A stretch of DNA of 64,000 nt from a phage. This document shows, one piece after another, positions 4,625 through 43,462 of the stretch. The translations under genes and the position numbers were made by a program. The stretch is from the NCBI GenBank assembly GCA_024790105.1, contig GCA_024790105.1_3053.1; one strand, 5' to 3'. The notes beneath the pieces were generated by a model. The model was not told the DNA's origin and did no database searches. It saw only the letters and a list, made by a program, of their open reading frames with translations. The first letter of the stretch is position 1. The number at the start of each line of letters is the position of its first letter.

Positions 4625-5127
4625 TTAAAAGTATTTTTTAAAACTCATCATAACTTTATCATCAACATCATTATCAATCTGTGCAACAAGGTAAGATGAC
4701 AGTTCTACTTCTTGTGGCGCGGATTGAACATTATCAGAATTAAGGTATTCACGAATCCAAGGATATGGATGTTTAACCGGAGCATCGGTAATCGGGCATG
4801 GAAGACCGCACTGTTTCATACGAGACACAGTCAAGTAATCAATAAAGCTCCACATGCTATTTGTATTTAATCCAGGAACATCACCATCTTTAAATAAATG
4901 AACTGCCCAATCTTTTTCTTGGCGGTTAACTTCCATGAAAATATCAACTGCTTCTTGTTCACACTCTTGAGCAATTTTAACCCATTCATCACTATCAGTA
5001 CCAGATTGAAGTTGACGAATAATATATTGGGTGCCTTTAAGGTGAAGCTGCTCATCACGTGCAATGAACTTCATAATCTTGGCATTACCTTCCATGATTT
5101 CCATGTTCTTATGGAAGTTAAAGGTAC
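4625..5127 (-). CDS. nrdB: ribonucleotide reductase small subunit, exon 2
   Basis: C-terminal R2 sequence (MEGNAKIMKFIARDEQLH...) in frame from the inferred 3' splice site after an intron-terminal G at 5128. Confidence 0.8.
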
Positions 5128-5694
5128 CGTTATGTTCGATTGAGCTCGCTAATTCTCAACCCGTTCTCTTATGAACTGCTACATATTACTATGCAGACCA
5201 GACTATATCACAATCCCAGAGGGATTCTCCCCATTTCGAGTCGCTTGACCCTACGTCCGAAGACTAGTCGTTGAACCTTGCTTTGCAATTGTCGCCGTGC
5301 CATCGTTTATATGTTGATGGTGATAAATCTTTCTTATCACAATATGGACAATTCAATTGAATTCTATTTGGATTTAATTTACATCTGTCATTATGTTTTA
5401 GATAAAATCCAGAACCTTTACCAATGTGACCGCAGAAATCGCATGTGATTTCTTTTTGTGCAGGATGGGTCCCGTTCTTAACCATTTCTAATGTTTTTGC
5501 TGATGTCTTTTCTTATGGTCTTCCATCAGAATCTTTAGGTATAGTTCAATTGTGCATCCTCTTAAAAGTATAATCATATTTATGTTATACTAATTAAAAG
5601 TGCAAGCAAAACCTTGGCTGCTAGTTTTCCTATAAAGGACTTTCCAGCAATTAAAGGAGTTTTCGATAAACGTTACCGTTTAAAGGCGCATTTT
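5128..5694 (-). mobile_element. group I self-splicing intron in nrdB (boundaries approximate)
   Basis: interrupts conserved R2 sequence between FYVSFA and FNFHKNMEIMEG; exon 1 ends in U; intron ends ...GAACAUAACG, closely similar to the td intron 3' end ...GAACAUAAUG; carries a degenerate ORF. Confidence 0.75.
5264..5485 (-). CDS. intron-encoded ORF, probable truncated homing endonuclease remnant (I-TevIII-like zinc-finger region)
   Basis: 73-aa ORF inside the nrdB intron with CxxC...C and CxxC cysteine clusters; no HNH catalytic motif present. Confidence 0.45.
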   Translation of the reverse strand: MVKNGTHPAQKEITCDFCGHIGKGSGFYLKHNDRCKLNPNRIQLNCPYCDKKDLSPSTYKRWHGDNCKARFND

Positions 5695-6421: not shown

Positions 6422-7411
6422 TCATAATTTACAGGATGAACAATCTTCAGCTTTTGGAGTTTCTATTTCGTAATCATCAGTGCCAGAACCATCACGGGTA
6501 TTATGATAATAGAAATTTTTAATGCCATAATACCATCCGTATAGCATGTCATCAATCATTATTGACATTGGAACCTTTCCTTTTGGAAAAATCTGCGGGT
6601 CATAGTATGTATTCGCTGAAGCTGATTGACATACCCATTTCAGCATAATAGCTACTTGCGTAAGATAAGGTTTATTACCTTTCTTAGCTAATTTCCATGT
6701 ATAATCATAGAGGTCTATGTTATGCTCAATATTGGGCACGACTTGATTAAAGGAGCCCTCTTTTGATTCTTTAACAGAGACTGGTCCACGTGGAGGCTCG
6801 ATACCGTTTGTACTGTTAGAAACTTGGGAAGATGACTCACATGGCATAAGTGCTGATAATGTGCTATTACGGATGCCAAATAGCTTAAGGTCTTCCCGCA
6901 GCGCCGACCAGTCACAAACGTATTTTGGAGCTGCGATTTGGTCAATCTTTTTATTGTACCAGTCGATAGGTAATTCGCCTCGAGACCAACGAGTGTCTGA
7001 ATAATATTCGCAAGGTCCTTTTTCTTTGGCGAGCTTAATGGATGCTTTAATGAGTCCATACTGTAATCTCTCAAATAGTTCATGTGTTAAATCGTTAGCA
7101 TCTTCATAAGAAGCAAAGTTACTTGCCAGCCAAGCTGCATAGTTAGTAACACCTACACCAAGGTTACGACGCTTTTTAGCTTTTTCTGCTTCAGGAACTG
7201 GATATCCTTGGTAATCCAAAAGATTATCAAGAGCACGAACTTGAACTTCTGCTAATTCATTAATTTTATCTTGGTCTTGCCAGTCAAAATTGTCTAATAC
7301 GAATGCAGAGAGAGTACAAAGGCCCACTTCACCTTTGTTTTCAATAACTTGTATTGTTGTATACTCATCATCTTCGTAAAATTCATCTACAAATTCATAA
7401 TCAATATTCAT
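6422..7411 (-). CDS. nrdA: ribonucleotide reductase large subunit, C-terminal fragment (NrdA-b)
   Basis: 329 aa with own ATG; from GEVGLCTLSAF onward matches class Ia R1 C-terminal half, ending with the CSSCKL cysteine tail. Confidence 0.85.
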   Translation of the reverse strand: MNIDYEFVDEFYEDDEYTTIQVIENKGEVGLCTLSAFVLDNFDWQDQDKINELAEVQVRALDNLLDYQGYPVPEAEKAKKRRNLGVGVTNYAAWLASNFASYEDANDLTHELFERLQYGLIKASIKLAKEKGPCEYYSDTRWSRGELPIDWYNKKIDQIAAPKYVCDWSALREDLKLFGIRNSTLSALMPCESSSQVSNSTNGIEPPRGPVSVKESKEGSFNQVVPNIEHNIDLYDYTWKLAKKGNKPYLTQVAIMLKWVCQSASANTYYDPQIFPKGKVPMSIMIDDMLYGWYYGIKNFYYHNTRDGSGTDDYEIETPKAEDCSSCKL

Positions 7412-8111
7412 TTAATTCTTCTACCTTTTTTCGAGATATTCCTAGAGCTTTAGATGCTCGATGTATTGATTGATATTCTATACCGTTTATTTTTACAGCA
7501 ATTAAGTTATGGGGTTTTAATCCCTTTGGATGAGGTTTACTGACGTATTCTTGATTATCGTTTTCAGAGATATTATCAAGCTTTCGACACTTAAAGCCTT
7601 TATGTTGAGACCTTTTGCCTTTGCATACGGCCGACATTGCCGAAGCATTGAGTGAATGTAGTTCGCAAAATTCTCTTAGGCCTTTATGGATTTCTTCATG
7701 ACCGTCCGGGAAAGTAAATACCCAAGTTGTTTGAAGTTTTTCTCTATGCTCGTCAGTTGCCGGAATACCTTTGTTCCAAGCTGGTTTGCCTTTATTATTT
7801 TCAGATACAGAAATAGCCAATTTTCTTCTAAGCCACCCATGGCGTTTATTGGTGTTCTTTCGTTCAATATTATCTTCAGAATAAACACACATCATATTAG
7901 CGGCAAATACCAATTTATGATTATCTGGATATATCTTTACTAATAATTGATGAGCTATGTAATGCTCTTCGGGTGTCAAATCTACCAGGTTTTCCTTTGT
8001 ATCAGAACCACCAATACACAGAGGTATAATATGGTGTGATTCGGTATAGCAATCTAATTTTCTGTTCTTAGCTTTAGAAATAAGGTTATTGTAAATTTTA
8101 GAATAATCCAT
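7401..8111 (-). CDS. HNH homing endonuclease, Mob family (mobE-like), inserted within nrdA
   Basis: 236 aa; HNH motif HHIIPLCIGGSDTKENLVDLTPEEHYIAH; N-terminus MDYSKIYNNLI paralogous to mobA N-terminus; AGGA RBS; stop overlaps NrdA-b start. Confidence 0.85.
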   Translation of the reverse strand: MDYSKIYNNLISKAKNRKLDCYTESHHIIPLCIGGSDTKENLVDLTPEEHYIAHQLLVKIYPDNHKLVFAANMMCVYSEDNIERKNTNKRHGWLRRKLAISVSENNKGKPAWNKGIPATDEHREKLQTTWVFTFPDGHEEIHKGLREFCELHSLNASAMSAVCKGKRSQHKGFKCRKLDNISENDNQEYVSKPHPKGLKPHNLIAVKINGIEYQSIHRASKALGISRKKVEELNEY

Positions 8112-8156
8112 AACTTTTCCTCTTGTTATGGATTATTTATTAACGGTCTGTGTACT

Positions 8157-9590
8157 TTATTTGCTTTGAATTATACCGCCAGGATTAGCTTCATAAAACT
8201 TAGCTACATCCGACTTCTTAATTTTGATTAAACGGGTTTGTTGGCTATTCACATCATTTGTTGGAATAGCAATTTCACAGCACAAGTTACTCTGACGAAT
8301 TGGAGCTTTTTCACGAATAAACGGAGTGTAGTTATTCGTATTATCAATGAACTGTACATAAATCCTTGCTGTTCCTGAGCGTTCAGTCATGAGCAATTCA
8401 AATAGTTCACGGGCTTTAATACGCTTTTTGCGAATATTAGGGTCTTTTTCTGCTGCTTCGTATAATTCACGGAAACGGTCTTGGTCTTTAAAATAAGAAT
8501 AATAAAGCTCTCCACCCATTTCATGCGGACTGAACAAAGTAATGTAATCGTTCTTTCCGAATCGTTCCATCATTAGGTCATTCAGCTGGACGCCATAATC
8601 CATATGACGAATGCGGTTTTCTTCTACACCTTTGTTATTTTTCAAAACGAGAAGATTTTCAACTTCCAAATGCCAAATAGGATAATAAGCAGTAGCAGCG
8701 CCGCCACGAATTCCACCCTGTGAGCATGATTTAACAGCAGTCTGAAAATGTTTCCAAAAAGGAATAACACCAGTATGACGTACTTCACCCGTACCAATCT
8801 TAGAACCTTCGGCACGAATCATACCAACGTTAATACCAATTCCAGCGCGTTTAGAGATATATTCAACAATTGAAGCGGAAGCCTTATTGATAGACTTTAA
8901 TGAATCACCTGCCTCAATAACAACACATGAACTAAACTGTCGAGTCGGAGTACGACAACCAGCCATAATAGGAGTTGGTAATGAAATCTGTCGAGTAGAT
9001 ACTGCTTCATAAAAACGGATAACGTGTTTTAATCTATCAACAGGTTCATCTTGATGCAATGCCATTCCGATAGTCATAAATGCAAACTGTGGAGTTTCAT
9101 AAATTTGACCAGTGGTTTTATCTTTAACTAGATATTTTTCTTTTAATTGCATCGCCCCGGAATAAGTAAATTCCATATCCCGCTCGTGCTTAATTTTTGA
9201 TTCTAAAAATGTAATTTCTTCTGCTGAATATTTTGACAATAATTCAGGGTCATATTTACCTTCATTTACACAATAAGAAATATGGTCAATAAATGAACGT
9301 GGTTCATACTGCCCATAAACATGCTTACGAAGAGCAAACATTAAACAGCGTGCAGCTACATATTGATAATCAGGCTCTTCAACTGAAATAGAATTCGCAG
9401 CAGCCTTAATTACAATGGTTTGAATGTCATCAGTGGTCATTCCATCACGGAGATATGATTTAATATTTTCATATAATTCATAAGGATCTACAGATGTTCC
9501 TTCAGCTGCCCAAGATAAAACTTTAATAATTTTTTGCGGGTCAAAGCTTTGAGAAACACCACTACTTTTGATAACATTAATTAATTGCAT
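8157..9590 (-). CDS. nrdA: ribonucleotide reductase large subunit, N-terminal fragment (NrdA-a)
   Basis: 477 aa from MQLINVIKSSG (AGAGGA RBS); ATP-cone and catalytic region through SNLCCEIAIPTNDVNS, then 28 unrelated codons and a stop. Confidence 0.85.
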   Translation of the reverse strand: MQLINVIKSSGVSQSFDPQKIIKVLSWAAEGTSVDPYELYENIKSYLRDGMTTDDIQTIVIKAAANSISVEEPDYQYVAARCLMFALRKHVYGQYEPRSFIDHISYCVNEGKYDPELLSKYSAEEITFLESKIKHERDMEFTYSGAMQLKEKYLVKDKTTGQIYETPQFAFMTIGMALHQDEPVDRLKHVIRFYEAVSTRQISLPTPIMAGCRTPTRQFSSCVVIEAGDSLKSINKASASIVEYISKRAGIGINVGMIRAEGSKIGTGEVRHTGVIPFWKHFQTAVKSCSQGGIRGGAATAYYPIWHLEVENLLVLKNNKGVEENRIRHMDYGVQLNDLMMERFGKNDYITLFSPHEMGGELYYSYFKDQDRFRELYEAAEKDPNIRKKRIKARELFELLMTERSGTARIYVQFIDNTNNYTPFIREKAPIRQSNLCCEIAIPTNDVNSQQTRLIKIKKSDVAKFYEANPGGIIQSK

Positions 9591-9645: not shown

Positions 9646-10377
9646 ATGAAATCTGGAATATATGCTATTATAAACACTAAAACTAATAAGCACTATATAG
9701 GAAGTGCAATTAATTTTGAAGAACGATGGAAACGACACTTTAAAGATTTAGATAATGGAAATCATCATTCAATAAAGCTGCAGCGTTCTTATAATAAGCA
9801 TGGTAAAGATGCTTTCGTATGTAAAATCATAGAAGAACTTCCATACGAAAAATCTATCATTATTGAACGTGAAAATTATTGGATGCATGAATATGACTCA
9901 AAGGAAAATGGGTATAATATAGCAGACGCATCGTTTGGGGATACCTTATCTCATCACCCAAGAAAGCAAGAAATCCTTAATAAAATTTCAAATGCAATTA
10001 AAAATAATAATTCAAAATTATCACCAGAAGAACTTAAGCAAAAACATGGTAGACCTAGAGACATCAAAGGTAAAACTATAGAAGAACACTATGGGTTAGA
10101 TCGTGCTATAGAAATAAGCAAAAAGTTCCAAGAAAGAAACGCTGCACTTAATATGAAAGGCATCAATAATCCATATTACGGTCAGACGCATACCAATGAA
10201 GTTAGAAAACGAATTTCTGACTCACAGAGAGGTAAAAAGAAACCCCATCTAAGAGTAAGTATAGATGGGGTAGAATATCCAACAATAGCAGAAGCTGTGC
10301 GTCAAACCGGAATAAGCAGAAAACTTATATCTAAAAGATGTGCTCTAGATTGCTGGGAATCATATTTATACTGCTAA
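9646..10377 (+). CDS. free-standing GIY-YIG homing endonuclease, I-TevI paralog
   Basis: 243 aa; N-terminal ~100 aa about 70% identical to the I-TevI catalytic domain encoded at 11094-11831 (MKSGIY...YIGSA...RWKRHFKDL...NGYNIADA); different C-terminal DNA-binding region. Confidence 0.85.
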
Positions 10378-10946: not shown

Positions 10947-11962
10947 CATTATGTTCAGATAAGGTCGTTAATCTTACCCCGGAATTATATCCAGCTGCAT
11001 GTCACCATGCAGATCAGACTATATCTCCAACTTGTTAAAGCAAGTTGTCTATCGTTTCGAGCCACTTGACCCTACTCCCCAAAGGGATAGTCGTTAGGCA
11101 TTTATGTAGAACCAATTCCATTTATCAGATTTTACACGATAAGTAACTAATCCAGACGAAATTTTAAAATGTCTAGCTGCATCTGCTGCACAATCAAAAA
11201 TAACCCCATCACATGAAATCTTTTTAATATTACTAGGCTTTTTACCTTTCATCTTTTCTGATATTTTAGATTTAGTTATGTCTGAATGCTTATGATTAAA
11301 GAATGAATTATTTTCACCTGAACGATTTCTGCATTTACTACAAGTATAAGCAGAAGTTTGTATGCGAACACCGCACTTACAAAACTTATGGGTTTCTGGA
11401 TTCCAACGCCCGTTTTTACTTCCGGGTTTACTGTAAAGAGCTTTCCGACCATCAGGTCCAAGTTTAAGCATCTTAGCTTTAACAGTTTCAGAACGTTTCT
11501 TAATAATTTCTTCTTTTAATGGATGCGTAGAACATGTATCACCAAACGTTGCATCAGCAATATTGTATCCATTAATTTTAGAATTAAGCTCTTTAATCCA
11601 AAAATTTTCTCGTTCAATAATCAAATCTTTCTCATATGGAATTTCTTCCAAAATAGAACATTCAAACACATTACCATGTTTGTTAAAAGACCTCTGAAGC
11701 TTTATAGAAGAATGACATCCTTTTTCTAAATCTTTAAAATGCCTCTTCCATCTCTTTTCAAAATCTTTAGCACTTCCTACATATACTTTATTGTTTAAAG
11801 TATTTTTAATCTGATAAATTCCGCTTTTCATAAATACCTCTTTAAATATAGAAGTATTTATTAAAGGGCAGTCCTACAATTTAGCACGGGATTGTCTACT
11901 AGAGAGGTTCCCCGTTTAGATAGATTACAAGTATAAGTCACCTTATACTCAGGCCTAAATTA
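10947..11962 (-). mobile_element. td group I self-splicing intron (1016 nt)
   Basis: 5' end UAAUUUAGGCCUGAGUAUAAGGUGACUUAUACUUG... and 3' end ...AACAUAAUG recognised as the T4 td intron; exon 1 ends in U, intron ends in G. Confidence 0.9.
11094..11831 (-). CDS. intron-encoded GIY-YIG homing endonuclease I-TevI
   Basis: 245 aa, MKSGIYQIKNTLNNKVYVGSA...; recognised as I-TevI; lies wholly inside the td intron. Confidence 0.9.
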   Translation of the reverse strand: MKSGIYQIKNTLNNKVYVGSAKDFEKRWKRHFKDLEKGCHSSIKLQRSFNKHGNVFECSILEEIPYEKDLIIERENFWIKELNSKINGYNIADATFGDTCSTHPLKEEIIKKRSETVKAKMLKLGPDGRKALYSKPGSKNGRWNPETHKFCKCGVRIQTSAYTCSKCRNRSGENNSFFNHKHSDITKSKISEKMKGKKPSNIKKISCDGVIFDCAADAARHFKISSGLVTYRVKSDKWNWFYINA

Positions 11963-40014: not shown

Positions 40015-40218
40015 TTAATTCATATTGCGTTTAATAACTTCAGCAACTTCTAGTAGTTCATCTTTAGTTGCGGTGTCGGATTGAATTTTATCTCTAATAT
40101 CCTTAAAGCGGTTTTTAAACTCTTCGGCTTCTCCCATATCGAAAAAGCGTTGAATGATTCTATATTCTCGGTGAACTGCTTTATCAAAAAGTTCTAAATT
40201 TACTTTATATGATTTCAT
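40015..40218 (-). CDS. hypothetical protein (rIIA.1-like)
   Basis: 67-aa ORF. Confidence 0.45.
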
Positions 40219-40272
40219 TTCAATATCCTTATTTGCCCAATTAATTATACCACATCCTTGTGGTAAAGTAAA

Positions 40273-40805
40273 CTACTGGCTCATCCATTCTTTACGAAGG
40301 TCAGCATTATCTCCCATGAGCATTTCAAAAAGCTCTTTCCAGTTCTCAGGAAGTTTAACAACATCATATACTGGGTTTTGAATCATTTCTTTATATTCAT
40401 CCCGCTGAAGTGAGCCCAATCCCTTGATGTATCGAATACTATGTTTAGGTAGAGCATCTTTAGCACTCTCATATTCAGCGACTGTATAAAACCATTCTTG
40501 TTTTTTACCTACCTGAGCGATGATTACAGGAGTTTTGACGAAGCGAATTCTTCCTTGTTCAAACAGTTCTGGCCAATTACTAAAAAATCCGAGCAGAGAA
40601 GGATAAATAGAACCTAATCCAATAATCTCTTAATTATGAGGTATTTCTATAGATAGCCCGAAGGCTATCCATCGTGATCTGCGTCTGTCATAATAGCGAC
40701 ATTCGCATAGTTCATTGAAGAGGATTTAATAGAACGACGAACATTGTTCTGCAATTTATATTTTTTCATATCAACGCTAGAAGAATCAATTTTTACAAAT
40801 TTCAT
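40273..40805 (-). CDS. 60: DNA topoisomerase II small subunit gp60, translated across a 50-nt bypass
   Basis: codons 1-46 (MKFVKIDSSS...TDADHDG) at 40668-40805, UAG stop, 50-nt gap, codons 47-160 (LGSIYP...RKEWMSQ) at 40276-40617; 46+114 = 160 aa. Confidence 0.85.
40618..40670 (-). promoter_or_regulatory. gene 60 translational bypass (hop) element
   Basis: minus strand GAU GGA UAG CCUUCGGGCUAUCUAUAGAAAUACCUCAUAAUUAAGAGAUUAUU GGA UUA: take-off GGA 40668-40670, UAG 40665-40667, UUCG-loop hairpin, landing GGA 40618-40620. Confidence 0.9.
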
Positions 40806-41604
40806 TATACACCTCATAGAACTTTTCATCAGGAATCCAACCGCGTTTAAATTCATTAAATGCTCGGCCGAATAATTTTGAATTCACAGTTATATTATTA
40901 ACTGATTTCCATTTAGCAACTCCCGTTCGTTTATAATGATCGGGGTCATATTTCGTGACGTACCATTCATATAAATTTGGTATTAATTTTACAGCCTCTG
41001 GATTTGTCGCTGATTTATTATACCATGGTTTCGCTTTTTCAAGTTCAGCTGCTTTTGCAGTAGCAGCAACAGTATTTCCAATACCAACTAATTTTTCAGT
41101 TTTAATGCGTGGATCATTAACATGAAGACGAAAAACTTCGCCCTTTTCATTTTTAAAGCATGTCATGCCTTTAATTCCAGGAAGCTTAACACCTTTATTA
41201 ACACCGCACCATTCCTTTGGGTTAAATGATCCTTTAATTAATAAGGCGCATTTACCCGATTTAATATTTCTCATTAAAACTTTATCTTTCATAAAGTTTT
41301 TTGACCATTCAGATACTGCTCTTTGATGGTAAATTCTAGCAATTTCATATAATTTACTAGAACGTAAATATTTTTCAGTGTTTAACATTCTATTCATCGC
41401 ATATGCCATTTCACGATTACGATGAATTTTATATAGTAGAAAATGTGCTAAAAAGTGTTCACGAAAAGTCAGTTTCACCAAATTTTCTTTATCATCAGAA
41501 CCTCCCATTGATCTTGGAAGGATATGATGAATTTCACCCTTAAATTTAGAAACGCGGGTTTTACCCCGCACTATTAAGTCATTATAGATTTTTTCGTAAT
41601 TCAC
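40786..41604 (-). CDS. mobA: HNH homing endonuclease MobA
   Basis: 272 aa; HNH motif EIHHILPRSMGGSDDKENLVKLTFREH; sits between genes 39 and 60. Confidence 0.8.
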   Translation of the reverse strand: MNYEKIYNDLIVRGKTRVSKFKGEIHHILPRSMGGSDDKENLVKLTFREHFLAHFLLYKIHRNREMAYAMNRMLNTEKYLRSSKLYEIARIYHQRAVSEWSKNFMKDKVLMRNIKSGKCALLIKGSFNPKEWCGVNKGVKLPGIKGMTCFKNEKGEVFRLHVNDPRIKTEKLVGIGNTVAATAKAAELEKAKPWYNKSATNPEAVKLIPNLYEWYVTKYDPDHYKRTGVAKWKSVNNITVNSKLFGRAFNEFKRGWIPDEKFYEVYNEICKN

Positions 41605-43132
41605 CTACTGTTATCCATTTACCATTAATCTGTACTTCATCATTTTCATTTACGATAATTGTATCGCCATTTAGCTCGAAAGTAAACCACTCGCCATCTT
41701 CTTTTTCTTCAAACGCTTTTTCACCAAGAACTAATCCAGTGATTGCGCAAATATCAAACAGTTCTTTGTTTTTAAGCATATCAGCATATGACATACCCCA
41801 ACTGTTGAGAACTTTACCACGCAATGGATAACCACCGTGAAGTTCTTTATCACGAACATCAATAAGATATCCGATAGCAGAATCACCCTCAGTCAAGAAA
41901 AGAGTAGTGTCAGCATCTTTACTACAAAGATTCGCTTTGATATGTTTATGAACCTTAGCTTTAGAAGCCTTTTTAGCTGCTTTAGTTTCTGCTGCTTTCT
42001 CTGCCGCCAATTTACGAGCCAAAGCAGCTTCAATAATCGGCATCAGAATTGCTTCATTATTTAGAATAGCGCGTGAAATCTTTTTAGCATCAAGTTGAAT
42101 ATGACTACGAATTTCACCGAATGGAGAAGTCAAACGCTCTTTAGTTTGAGAATCAAATCGCATGTTTTTCATATCACGAACAAACATAACGATAGTCAAA
42201 CATTCTTTAACGCGTGCTTTAGTTACATCAATTTTGAACTTACGTTTGATTTGTGGAATAAGGTCTTCACAAATATCATCCATAACACAGTCAATGTGAT
42301 GGCCACCATTCTTAGTGTGAATGTTATTCACGTAAGTTAATTGACGAAATCCATCCGGTGAACGACCAACCGCAATAGAGCAATTTTCCTGTTCTTGAAC
42401 GATAGCATGCTCATCATACTGGCGTGCATACTTCTTAAAATTGCCCTGAACCTTTTTACCGTTAAAGGTAAATTGAATATCAGGATAAACTACTGCAAGT
42501 GTCTGGAGACGATCTAGTGTAATGTCAAGATAAACTTGAGATAGCTCATTAGTTTCAAATGACATAAAATCAGGAATGAAAGTAACGCGAGTTCCTTTCC
42601 ATTTTCCAGGAATAGTTTCCCATGATTTATTTTCCATGCCGTTTGAACAACGAACTACAATATTATTTTGACCGTCGCCAGTTTCACCGACAAACATCAC
42701 AGAAAAAATGTTAGTTAAACTAGAACCAACACCGTTCATACCACCGGTGACACGTTCTTTATCATCACCAAAGTTACCACCCGCTTTTGGAATAGTCCAC
42801 GCAGCAACAGGACCAGGAATTTCTTCACCGGTAGGTGTTTTAACCATCGCCTGTGGAATACCGCGACCGTTATCTTCAACTGTTACTTGATTATTTTTAA
42901 TAGTAACATTAATTTTATTCGCGAATTTAAACTTAGTACGAATACCTTCATCTACCGAGTTATCGATAATTTCATCAATAAGCTTAACAAGACCAGGTAC
43001 ATACTGAACACTTTCCCATTTACCAAACAGAAAGCGCTCATGCATTTCATTAGCAGAAGAGCCAATATACATGCCGCTACGCTTTTTGATATGTTCAATA
43101 TCGCTCAGAATTTTAATTTCATTCTTAATCAT
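41582..43132 (-). CDS. 39: DNA topoisomerase II large (ATPase, GyrB-like) subunit gp39
   Basis: 516 aa from MIKNEIKILSD; GHKL ATPase motifs (DNGRGIP, GG.NGVGSS); recognised as T4 gp39. Confidence 0.9.
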   Translation of the reverse strand: MIKNEIKILSDIEHIKKRSGMYIGSSANEMHERFLFGKWESVQYVPGLVKLIDEIIDNSVDEGIRTKFKFANKINVTIKNNQVTVEDNGRGIPQAMVKTPTGEEIPGPVAAWTIPKAGGNFGDDKERVTGGMNGVGSSLTNIFSVMFVGETGDGQNNIVVRCSNGMENKSWETIPGKWKGTRVTFIPDFMSFETNELSQVYLDITLDRLQTLAVVYPDIQFTFNGKKVQGNFKKYARQYDEHAIVQEQENCSIAVGRSPDGFRQLTYVNNIHTKNGGHHIDCVMDDICEDLIPQIKRKFKIDVTKARVKECLTIVMFVRDMKNMRFDSQTKERLTSPFGEIRSHIQLDAKKISRAILNNEAILMPIIEAALARKLAAEKAAETKAAKKASKAKVHKHIKANLCSKDADTTLFLTEGDSAIGYLIDVRDKELHGGYPLRGKVLNSWGMSYADMLKNKELFDICAITGLVLGEKAFEEKEDGEWFTFELNGDTIIVNENDEVQINGKWITVGELRKNL

Positions 43133-43201
43133 CACTTATCCTCGTTTGGTTTCGGGAATATTATACTCCGGTAGTCATAAAGCTAAAGGCCCGAAGGCCT
43201 T

Positions 43202-43462
43202 TTATTTAAAGCGAATAGTCGAATCCTTGAAGAATAGTCCAGAACATACTGTTCCTTCTACTTTCTGTCCAGTAGGTCCAATAGCACGAAATCCAGTATG
43301 CTGGAAATCATTTTCAGAGCAACCGAACCAATTATATCCAGTGATTTCAATATTAGTAAAACCACTTGAAGACAAAACTTTGGTTGCATTATCAGCATCA
43401 GTACATCCTATTAAAGACACTGCTAATACTAATGCTGCAATAGAACGATTAATATATTTCAT
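43202..43462 (-). CDS. putative lipoprotein
   Basis: 86 aa; signal peptide with lipobox LIGC. Confidence 0.45.
   Translation of the reverse strand: MKYINRSIAALVLAVSLIGCTDADNATKVLSSSGFTNIEITGYNWFGCSENDFQHTGFRAIGPTGQKVEGTVCSGLFFKDSTIRFK

Follow-up and report, generated by a model that had tools for sequence, protein, structure and literature searches.

The large subunit of phage T4 topoisomerase II is encoded by gene 39 and gene 60, with the endonuclease gene mobA between them (Huang et al. 1988; Bonocora et al. 2011; Manning & Atkins 2022, 'clade 1', e.g. HY01). Among cases of programmed translational bypassing, this locus is the earliest and the most thoroughly studied, and it serves as a model of a selfish endonuclease that breaks a gene yet leaves its function. 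The published element comprises 1106 nt in place of 64 deleted nt, with 472 aa of gp39 followed by a 43-aa C-terminal extension (CTE), a 46-aa N-terminal extension (NTE) of gp60 consisting of 30 unique residues and 16 residues of homR, and a further 9 nt of homR beyond the coding gap (Manning & Atkins, bioRxiv 10.1101/2022.08.31.505936). Homing and self-protection of the T4 element are described by Bonocora et al. (2011, PNAS 108:16351), and a T4 review regards mobA as a promoter-less cassette and describes its GUG start and 23-bp overlap (PMC2988022).

A related solution is found in the 'genes in pieces' nrdA-a/mobE/nrdA-b of Aeromonas phage Aeh1 (Friedrich et al. 2007; Crona et al. 2011, PMC3045599). 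As at the locus described below, an enzyme gene is interrupted by a Mob-type HNH gene, two polypeptides each contribute part of the active site and the new ends bear tails of opposite charge encoded by the cassette, but the target is another enzyme and translational bypass is not involved. Homing endonucleases borne by introns or inteins, such as I-TevI in td, which is also present in the window (the 64,000 nt of phage DNA analyzed here), likewise reside in genes of DNA or nucleotide metabolism and come with an inbuilt means of keeping the host gene working and destroying the nuclease target site. Unlike these, the topoisomerase cassette does not splice; function would be regained via subunit assembly and ribosome hopping.

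The region 40273-43132 of the window runs exactly from the stop codon of gene 60 to the start codon of gene 39, and T4, T4T, HY01 and other phages, whose records annotate 39/mobA/60, match it over its full length with 97% identity. The mobA coordinates correspond to those of mobA in T4T and HY01. The last 23 nt of gene 39 (41582-41604) and the first 20 nt of gene 60 (40786-40805) also lie within mobA, in each case in a different frame. A GTG at 43135 is merely the first possible start of gene 39, the ATG being the annotated one. The preliminary description of a GyrB-like subunit encoded in two genes, with an HNH gene overlapping both, is thus borne out by the ORFs, Pfam and the comparison with RB51. 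The observation is confirmed as real and correctly read; it is the textbook T4 arrangement, ordinary and already published (Bonocora 2011; Manning & Atkins 2022; Xin 2024; the Aeh1 nrdA papers).

Features of the 39/mobA/60 locus and of the split nrdA gene in the window
Feature	Position	Strand	Description
Gene 39	41582-43132	minus	From ORF listing and raw sequence; annotated start ATG at 43132
Gene 39 product	41582-43132	minus	N-terminal 472-473 residues of topoisomerase II large subunit plus 43-aa C-terminal extension
gp39 CTE	41585-41713	minus	Cassette-encoded 43 aa, FEEKEDG...LRKNL, pI 4.1
MobA mobile element	40609-41714	minus	1106 nt: CTE, mobA, NTE, homR, bypass gap and 9 nt
mobA	40786-41604	minus	Intact, 272 aa, GTG start; Mob-type HNH homing endonuclease gene
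Gene 60	40273-40805	minus	Two segments either side of a 50-nt untranslated gap
Gene 60 codons 1-46	40668-40805	minus	30-aa unique N-terminal extension and 16-aa homR; ends in take-off GGA (40668-40670)
50-nt coding gap	40618-40667	minus	From raw sequence; bypass region annotated in T4, T4T and HY01 records
Gene 60 codons 47-160 and stop	40273-40617	minus	Remaining Toprim/C-terminal domain
Predicted take-off stem-loop	40649-40672	minus	10 bp, UUCG loop; contains take-off codon and UAG; MFE and centroid structures
Predicted 5' stem-loop	40680-40707	minus	Upstream of take-off; MFE and centroid structures
nrdA N-fragment	8157-9590	minus	477 aa; ATP-cone, all-alpha domain, barrel profile positions 1-221
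Second Mob-type HNH gene	7401-8111	minus	236 aa, MDYSKIYNNLI... from 8111; embedded in nrdA
nrdA C-fragment	6422-7411	minus	329 aa; acidic tail of about 27-29 aa (pI 4.05), then barrel profile positions 219-523

Together, the two products make up a type IIA topoisomerase subunit with GHKL ATPase, transducer and a Toprim domain of the E...DxD type. gp39 contains the ATPase, the transducer and the first half of Toprim including the EGDSA glutamate, whereas the DADHDG part of the metal site is found in gp60. Pfam detects HATPase_c (1.3e-9) and DNA_gyraseB (1.2e-13) in gp39 and TOPRIM_C (2.7e-8) in the C-terminal part of gp60. All 516 residues of gp39 (1-516) align with the T4 gp39-gp60 structure (PDB 8yo3), and the 46-aa N-terminal peptide of gp60 equals PDB 5np6_C. 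8yo3, one of several T4 topoisomerase II structures, matches the subunit over its entire length. This peptide consists of a basic head (MKFVKIDSSSVDMKKYKLQNNVRRSIKSSS, pI 10.4), assigned as the nascent-peptide bypass signal, and homR (MNYANVAIMTDADHDG), a recoded version of the Toprim DxDxD segment. In T4 topoisomerase II, the resulting Toprim insertion of about 70 aa is described as an assembly bracket with little influence on activity (PMC11461880).

The proposed comparison with an unsplit T2-type gene was made with RB51 60plus39 and defines both the split and the element. T2/T6/RB51-type phages lack the cassette and produce a single polypeptide of 605 aa, their gene being the natural target of MobA. 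Homology to the RB51 gene stops after nt 1418 (aa 473; 41715 in the window) and restarts at nt 1483 (40608), with DNA identities of 96% over nt 1-1418 and 92% over nt 1483-1818 and protein identities of 92-100% over the shared parts. Hence, the element takes the place of 64 nt. These boundaries were defined by BLAST; a global MAFFT alignment of split and unsplit genes misplaced the 1.1-kb gap. Gene 60 remains parental at 40273-40608, while 40609-40617 (LGS) still belong to the cassette. Together with the 9 nt after the gap, homR shares 39/57 positions (68%) with the displaced parental segment, within the 67-81% DNA identity that marks such recoded copies, and encodes MNYANVAIMTDADHDGLGS, a nearly parental peptide (parental LNYRNIAIMTDADHDGLGS). 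The MobA ORF of 272 aa, its out-of-frame overlaps, the 43-aa CTE and the 46-aa NTE likewise conform to the known elements (269-279 aa, out-of-frame overlap of a CTE of about 44 aa and an NTE of 44-46 aa). Insertion point, element and deletion lengths, extension lengths, GUG start and both overlaps are shared with T4, and this agreement with the published MobA element supports the view of the locus as a mobile cassette. A promoter/terminator consensus scan of 40150-43350 returned fewer promoter-like sites than shuffled sequence and nothing inside the cassette, which fits the promoter-less character ascribed to mobA.

The preliminary description did not include the 50-nt gap in gene 60, although it is the most remarkable feature of the locus and an integral part of the same mobile cassette. 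Directly after the take-off GGA follow the UAG stop (40665-40667), a stem with UUCG tetraloop, an AU-rich stretch, a GAG and the landing GGA (40618-40620), to which the GAG is 6 nt upstream. The known bypass arrangement GGA-UAG...GAG-AUUAUU-GGA, with matched codons, stop, stem-loop and Shine-Dalgarno-like GAG across 50 nt, is therefore present in full and shared with T4, and the sequence from the gene 60 start through the gap is identical to that of T4. A second stem-loop upstream of take-off is predicted here and has been described for T4 (bioRxiv 10.1101/2022.08.31.505936). Given the 99.9% identity to the T4-type cassette, for which bypassing is known from the literature, ribosomes of the present phage probably bypass the gap as well.

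Compared with T4T, the cassette differs at one position in 1106 nt (99.91% identity), while the flanks contain 54/1418 and 27/336 differences (92-96% identity), the first of them lying no more than 12 nt and 42 nt beyond the element. By its gene 39 backbone, the window is nearest to FL23, a phage with an unsplit gene (97.7%). Among 583 matching phage records, 42 carry the cassette; the other records listed align with 61% of the query as two separate stretches and have one large-subunit gene annotated, which is what an unsplit gene predicts. A near-identical cassette in diverged flanks, with a backbone nearest an unsplit phage, is, judged by these alignments, the signature of homing. The near-identity could in principle stem from strong constraint instead of recent transfer, but mobA third positions are invariant too, whereas codons of the flanking essential domains vary.

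Thus, the locus is almost certainly a copy of the T4 MobA/gene 60 mobile cassette in the topoisomerase II large-subunit gene of a T4-like phage (Tequatrovirus) other than T4; its anatomy, boundaries, intact ORFs and motifs and the signature of horizontal transfer are established in the present sequence, in which nothing contradicts this explanation. The 1106-nt element would have entered the Toprim domain and divided one gene into genes 39 and 60. It would have brought along a repair kit consisting of the in-frame acidic 43-aa gp39 tail, a start codon with the basic 30-aa gp60 head, and homR as a recoded copy of 16 displaced Toprim residues. By analogy with the literature, about half of the ribosomes may then hop from GGA to GGA across the untranslated gap, and gp39, gp60 and gp52 may assemble into active enzyme, in which the two tails would make up an external 'bracket'. 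MobA could nick unsplit (T2-type) genes near the homR-equivalent site, so that repair copies the cassette in, while the gap, which disrupts the recognition site, would protect the carrier. Nicking and homing into cassette-less targets by the present copy is what its near-identity to the T4-type cassette leads us to infer.

Alternatively, the split state could be ancestral, the single gene of T2, T6 and RB51 a fusion and mobA an intergenic passenger; the introduction of Xin et al. 2024 indeed leaves 'gene-fusion or gene-separation' undecided (PMC11461880). However, the cassette is the minority state, and Toprim is continuous in all cellular homologues matched. Moreover, a fusion would not create the roughly 70 extra residues and the recoded duplicate of the 64-nt parental segment in the split version, and the cassette is 99.9% identical between backbones differing by 4-8%. 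The fusion origin was hence rejected as highly improbable. Even less credible, to the point of being nearly negligible, is a removal of the interruption at the RNA or protein level, i.e. a group I intron or an intein, yielding one polypeptide. Group I introns that carry endonuclease ORFs do occur in the neighboring td and nrdB genes of the window, and Bonocora and colleagues reportedly speculated about a degenerate intron as the possible source of the bypass. Yet, Hint blocks or a ribozyme core flanking the endonuclease were not recovered: the Pfam search found no Hint/intein domain, and scanning the entire window against Rfam at gathering thresholds yielded zero matches, the latter being weak evidence, since the td and nrdB introns escaped it too and the bypass element has no family there. 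In addition, gene 39 is closed by a stop codon, gene 60 starts with an ATG behind a GAGG Shine-Dalgarno sequence of its own, and an intein would need far more extra residues than are present. Finally, T4 topoisomerase II was purified as three separate subunits (PMC11461880).

If the cassette were instead an inert relic with inactive mobA and vertical inheritance, this would agree with the old T4 reference record, which has 11 extra bases and annotates a mobA pseudogene and 'gene 60.1', and with the pseudogenization or deletion of mobA in several phages (Manning & Atkins, bioRxiv 10.1101/2022.08.31.505936). Here, however, mobA is full length, unlike in that T4 record, and retains all columns invariant across six Mob proteins, including E24, H26, H27, N41, H50 and H54. 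The sole nucleotide change relative to T4T is nonsynonymous (N113 instead of S). With an intact ORF and a near-identical cassette in a diverged backbone that groups with an unsplit phage, this reading was rejected as well, being improbable if not to the same degree as the former two. The preliminary description had further linked MobA to the HNH protein embedded in nrdA via a short N-terminal motif. Their homology in fact extends well beyond these 11 residues (51% identity across the first 74 aa, E = 3e-20), but ends at the HNH domain, with no similarity detectable between the C-terminal 160-200 aa. As every T4 Mob protein bears this N-terminal family signature, the two do not form a special pair. 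MobA shows the T4 Mob-type signature (MobA-E) MNYxKIYNxLI...ExHHIxP...GGxD...NLVxLT..EH..AH in an N-terminal domain of about 75 aa followed by a variable C-terminus; its assignment relies on the alignment with the T4 Mob proteins, since the Pfam HNH match is weak (7e-4, 20.1 bits, just below the 21.4-bit gathering cut-off). MobA, the nrdA HNH protein and T4 MobB/C/D/E have 24 invariant columns in common, with pairwise identities of 42-62% in the domain and 12-33% outside (forced alignment). A phmmer search of the window for more Mob paralogues returned just these two genes. The common N-terminus might suggest recent duplicates, one having jumped from target to target within this genome. This is very unlikely and was rejected: MobA is 57/54/54% and the nrdA HNH protein 62/62/56% identical to T4 MobE/B/D, hence as close or closer than to each other (about 50%), their C-terminal regions, presumably DNA-binding, are unrelated, and the cassettes assort independently (T4 topoisomerase only; FL23/FL44 nrdA only; five phages both).

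The split of nrdA in the window indeed follows the same logic as that of the topoisomerase gene, as had been suggested, with the second HNH gene between its halves. This HNH protein combines an N-terminal HNH domain with an I-HmuI NUMOD-like C-terminal part and is 99.6% identical to its HY01 counterpart. The split point lies between the Cys439 and Cys462 equivalents, in the same loop as in Aeh1. The claim that one endonuclease family fragmented two essential enzymes holds with respect to both splits and the Mob-type HNH gene in each, while 'essential' is overstated; T4 genes 39, 52 and 60 are DNA-delay genes, and T4 nrdA mutants are viable. The N-fragment ends with a basic 29-aa tail (pI 10.0), so that the tail charges are opposed in both cassettes with reversed polarity, i.e. 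basic CTE and acidic NTE in NrdA versus acidic CTE and basic NTE in the topoisomerase. The nrdA-splitting cassette of E. coli Tequatroviruses occurs in 33 phage records, and the literature mention found for it was solely as 'unpublished'.

Taken together, the window provides an additional natural carrier of the T4 element, with a T4-identical cassette in a non-T4 backbone. For annotation, gene 60 needs to be joined across the 50-nt gap, and mobA is intact and no pseudogene here. The topoisomerase and nrdA cassettes are able to coexist in one genome. Conceivably, albeit tentatively and with the balance leaning against it, a general, portable 'cut-and-clip' module may be part of Mob-type HNH cassettes, in which the charged tails would work like electrostatic zippers and bring the pieces of any enzyme divided within a surface loop back together. 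If this is true, the Tequatrovirus nrdA cassette would be an independent, experimentally uncharacterized second instance of the Aeh1 solution.

The large subunit of topoisomerase II is encoded by two genes in this T4-like phage, whose region is approximately 97% identical to T4 (no exact match to the window was present in the phage collection searched). As the preliminary description stated, the HNH endonuclease gene mobA lies between gene 39 and gene 60 and overlaps both. The overlaps measure 23 and 20 nt, respectively, each in another frame; open reading frames, Pfam domains and coordinates all bear this out. Gp39 carries GHKL ATPase and GyrB transducer domains and the distal part of gp60 a TOPRIM_C domain; the HNH match of MobA is below the Pfam threshold. 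T4T and HY01 have annotated genes colinear with these coordinates, and the GUG start of mobA and its 23-bp overlap are likewise found in T4 (PMC2988022). All three genes lie downstream of a UUCG-loop hairpin on the minus strand. This 7-bp hairpin (43185-43202, between gene 39.1 and gene 39) overlaps the 39.1 stop codon, has been annotated in phage G50 as a putative terminator and shares its tetraloop type with the take-off stem-loop of gene 60.

Features of the split topoisomerase and nrdA loci in the window
Feature	Position	Strand	Details
gene 39	41582-43132	minus	516 aa
mobA	40786-41604	minus	272 aa, GTG start
gene 60	40273-40805	minus	two coding segments across a 50-nt gap
gene 60 codons 1-46	40668-40805	minus	end in GGA, followed by UAG
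gene 60 coding gap	40618-40667	minus	UAGCCUUCGGGCUAUCUAUAGAAAUACCUCAUAAUUAAGAGAUUAUUGGA
MobA element	40609-41714	minus	1106 nt, in place of 64 parental nt
nrdA HNH gene	7401-8111	minus	236 aa, Mob-type, inside nrdA
nrdA upstream fragment	8157-9590	minus	477 aa; barrel-domain profile positions 1-221 (Pfam)
nrdA downstream fragment	6422-7411	minus	329 aa; barrel-domain profile positions 219-523 (Pfam)
nrdA insert	7319-8242	minus	924 nt, in place of 20 nt (relative to T4 nrdA)

Alignment to the unsplit gene of RB51 (annotated "60plus39", 605 aa) gave two blocks of DNA homology, 43132-41715 (nt 1-1418, 95.8%) and 40608-40273 (nt 1483-1818, 92.0%), which therefore delimit the mobA-bearing insert, the MobA element. 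Gp39 thus consists of 472-473 parental residues and a 43-aa extension (pI 4.1), and gp60 of a unique 30-aa head (pI 10.4), the 16-aa homR (MNYANVAIMTDADHDG), the hop, LGS and the parental remainder. As homR re-encodes the DxDxD motif of the displaced Toprim segment, with only 68% DNA identity to it, the Toprim metal site is divided between EGDSA on gp39 and DADHDG on gp60. All these boundary and extension figures agree with those of the MobA element of HY01 (Manning and Atkins, bioRxiv 10.1101/2022.08.31.505936).

The gap in gene 60, which the first account omits, is the classical translational bypass: reading resumes at 40617, past a second GGA, 50 nt on. Every base of the gap and of the entire upstream coding segment is the same as in T4, and both MFE and centroid folds predict the 10-bp UUCG take-off stem-loop and the upstream 5' stem-loop. 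The 46-residue nascent peptide is seen ribosome-bound in PDB structure 5np6_C.

Compared with T4T, the 1106-nt element differs at a single position (99.91%), versus 54 in the 1418 parental nt of gene 39 (96.2%) and 27 in the 336 parental nt of gene 60 (92.0%); flanking differences reappear at most 12 nt from one end and 42 nt from the other. In its gene 39 backbone, the window is closer to the unsplit FL23 (97.7%) than to the cassette-bearing phages compared (96.2-96.7%). The cassette is present in only 42 of the 583 phage records that match; the cassette-less matches listed align over 61% of the query, as two separate blocks, with a single large-subunit gene annotated. Judged from sequence, this contrast is the footprint that would be expected from homing into differing backbones. 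Alternatively, the T2-type single gene could be a secondary fusion; the near-identical cassette, its diverged flanks and its restriction to a minority of records argue against this, and in favor of homing. Just downstream of the cassette, a ~50-nt patch of gene 60 (~40387-40438, minus strand) has 20 differences to all five phages compared, changing LEKSEYRE to LQRDEYKE; it is 100% identical in CJY920 and 93.6% in a more distant group (vB_EcoM_F1, AV109, phiEC1), and resembles a short tract of mosaic recombination.

The mobA gene is one intact open reading frame that retains every invariant residue of the Mob family, its product differing from that of T4T by one residue (N113 versus S), whereas it is a "pseudogene" in the T4 reference NC_000866.4. 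The latter has 11 extra single bases relative to window positions 41265-41472, which would account for its "mobA pseudogene" and "gene 60.1" annotations; T4T and other cassette-bearing records match the mobA length of the window exactly and appear to be without these bases.

The nrdA gene is indeed split likewise, its HNH gene lying between two fragments. The proposed paralogy of the two endonucleases extends past the N-terminal motif, the first 74 residues being 51% identical (E = 3e-20) and the remainder showing no detectable similarity. The motif itself, by alignment, is a Mob family signature: both proteins and T4 MobB/C/D/E, six in all, have the domain MNYxKIYNxLI...HHIxP...NLVxLT..EH..AH. 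MobA shares 57%, 54% and 54% identity with MobE, MobB and MobD, and the nrdA HNH 62%, 62% and 56%, compared with 50% between the two; they belong to one family, as proposed, yet neither is the nearest relative of the other. In view of general T4 genetics, the word "essential" is too strong for the two split enzymes: nrdA can be dispensed with in T4, and genes 39, 52 and 60 are of the DNA-delay class.

The nrdA insert separates SNLCCE from GLCTL, which apparently correspond to E. coli Cys439 and Cys462; the split active-site loop would therefore be the one that mobE interrupts in Aeromonas phage Aeh1 (PMC3045599). The new ends bear oppositely charged tails (pI 10.0 and 4.05), as reported for Aeh1; in T4, by contrast, nrdA is intact with mobE downstream. 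Split nrdA occurs in 33 phage records. HY01, PEC04, vB_EcoM_112, Manna and F26 carry both cassettes, T4 only that of the topoisomerase and FL23/FL44 only that of nrdA. Between nrdA and td, in the place of T4's nrdA.1/nrdA.2, a 243-aa frame on the plus strand (9646-10377), opposite to all neighbours, combines GIY-YIG, NUMOD3 and I-TevI-type DNA-binding domains; it resembles I-TevI and is likely a free-standing seg-type homing endonuclease. Rfam searches of window 1-64000 at gathering thresholds gave no matches, despite a td intron with an I-TevI frame (11094-11831) and an nrdB intron (about 5105-5692); evidently, the covariance models miss ORF-bearing or truncated group I introns of the window.

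Taken together, the split topoisomerase is real and was correctly interpreted apart from the omitted bypass and the word "essential". Detailed descriptions of everything at this locus have already been published; the cassette that splits nrdA in E. coli T4-like phages, annotated in GenBank and mentioned in the literature consulted only as "unpublished", is the sole mildly open item at these loci. According to summaries of Bonocora et al. (2011), the target of MobA is cassette-less gene 39, which it nicks close to the position corresponding to homR; MobA shows high-frequency inheritance in mixed infections, and the 50-nt gap shields the carrier from self-cleavage. The active enzyme is an assembly of gp39, gp60 and gp52; by cryo-EM, the ~70 inserted residues form a bracket on the outside of Toprim that has little influence on activity (PMC11461880; PDB 8yo3). 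By analogy, MobA of the window would nick unsplit gene 39 near this site and thus promote inheritance of the cassette, the gap would guard the carrier against its own endonuclease, and gp39, gp60 and gp52 would assemble into an active topoisomerase.
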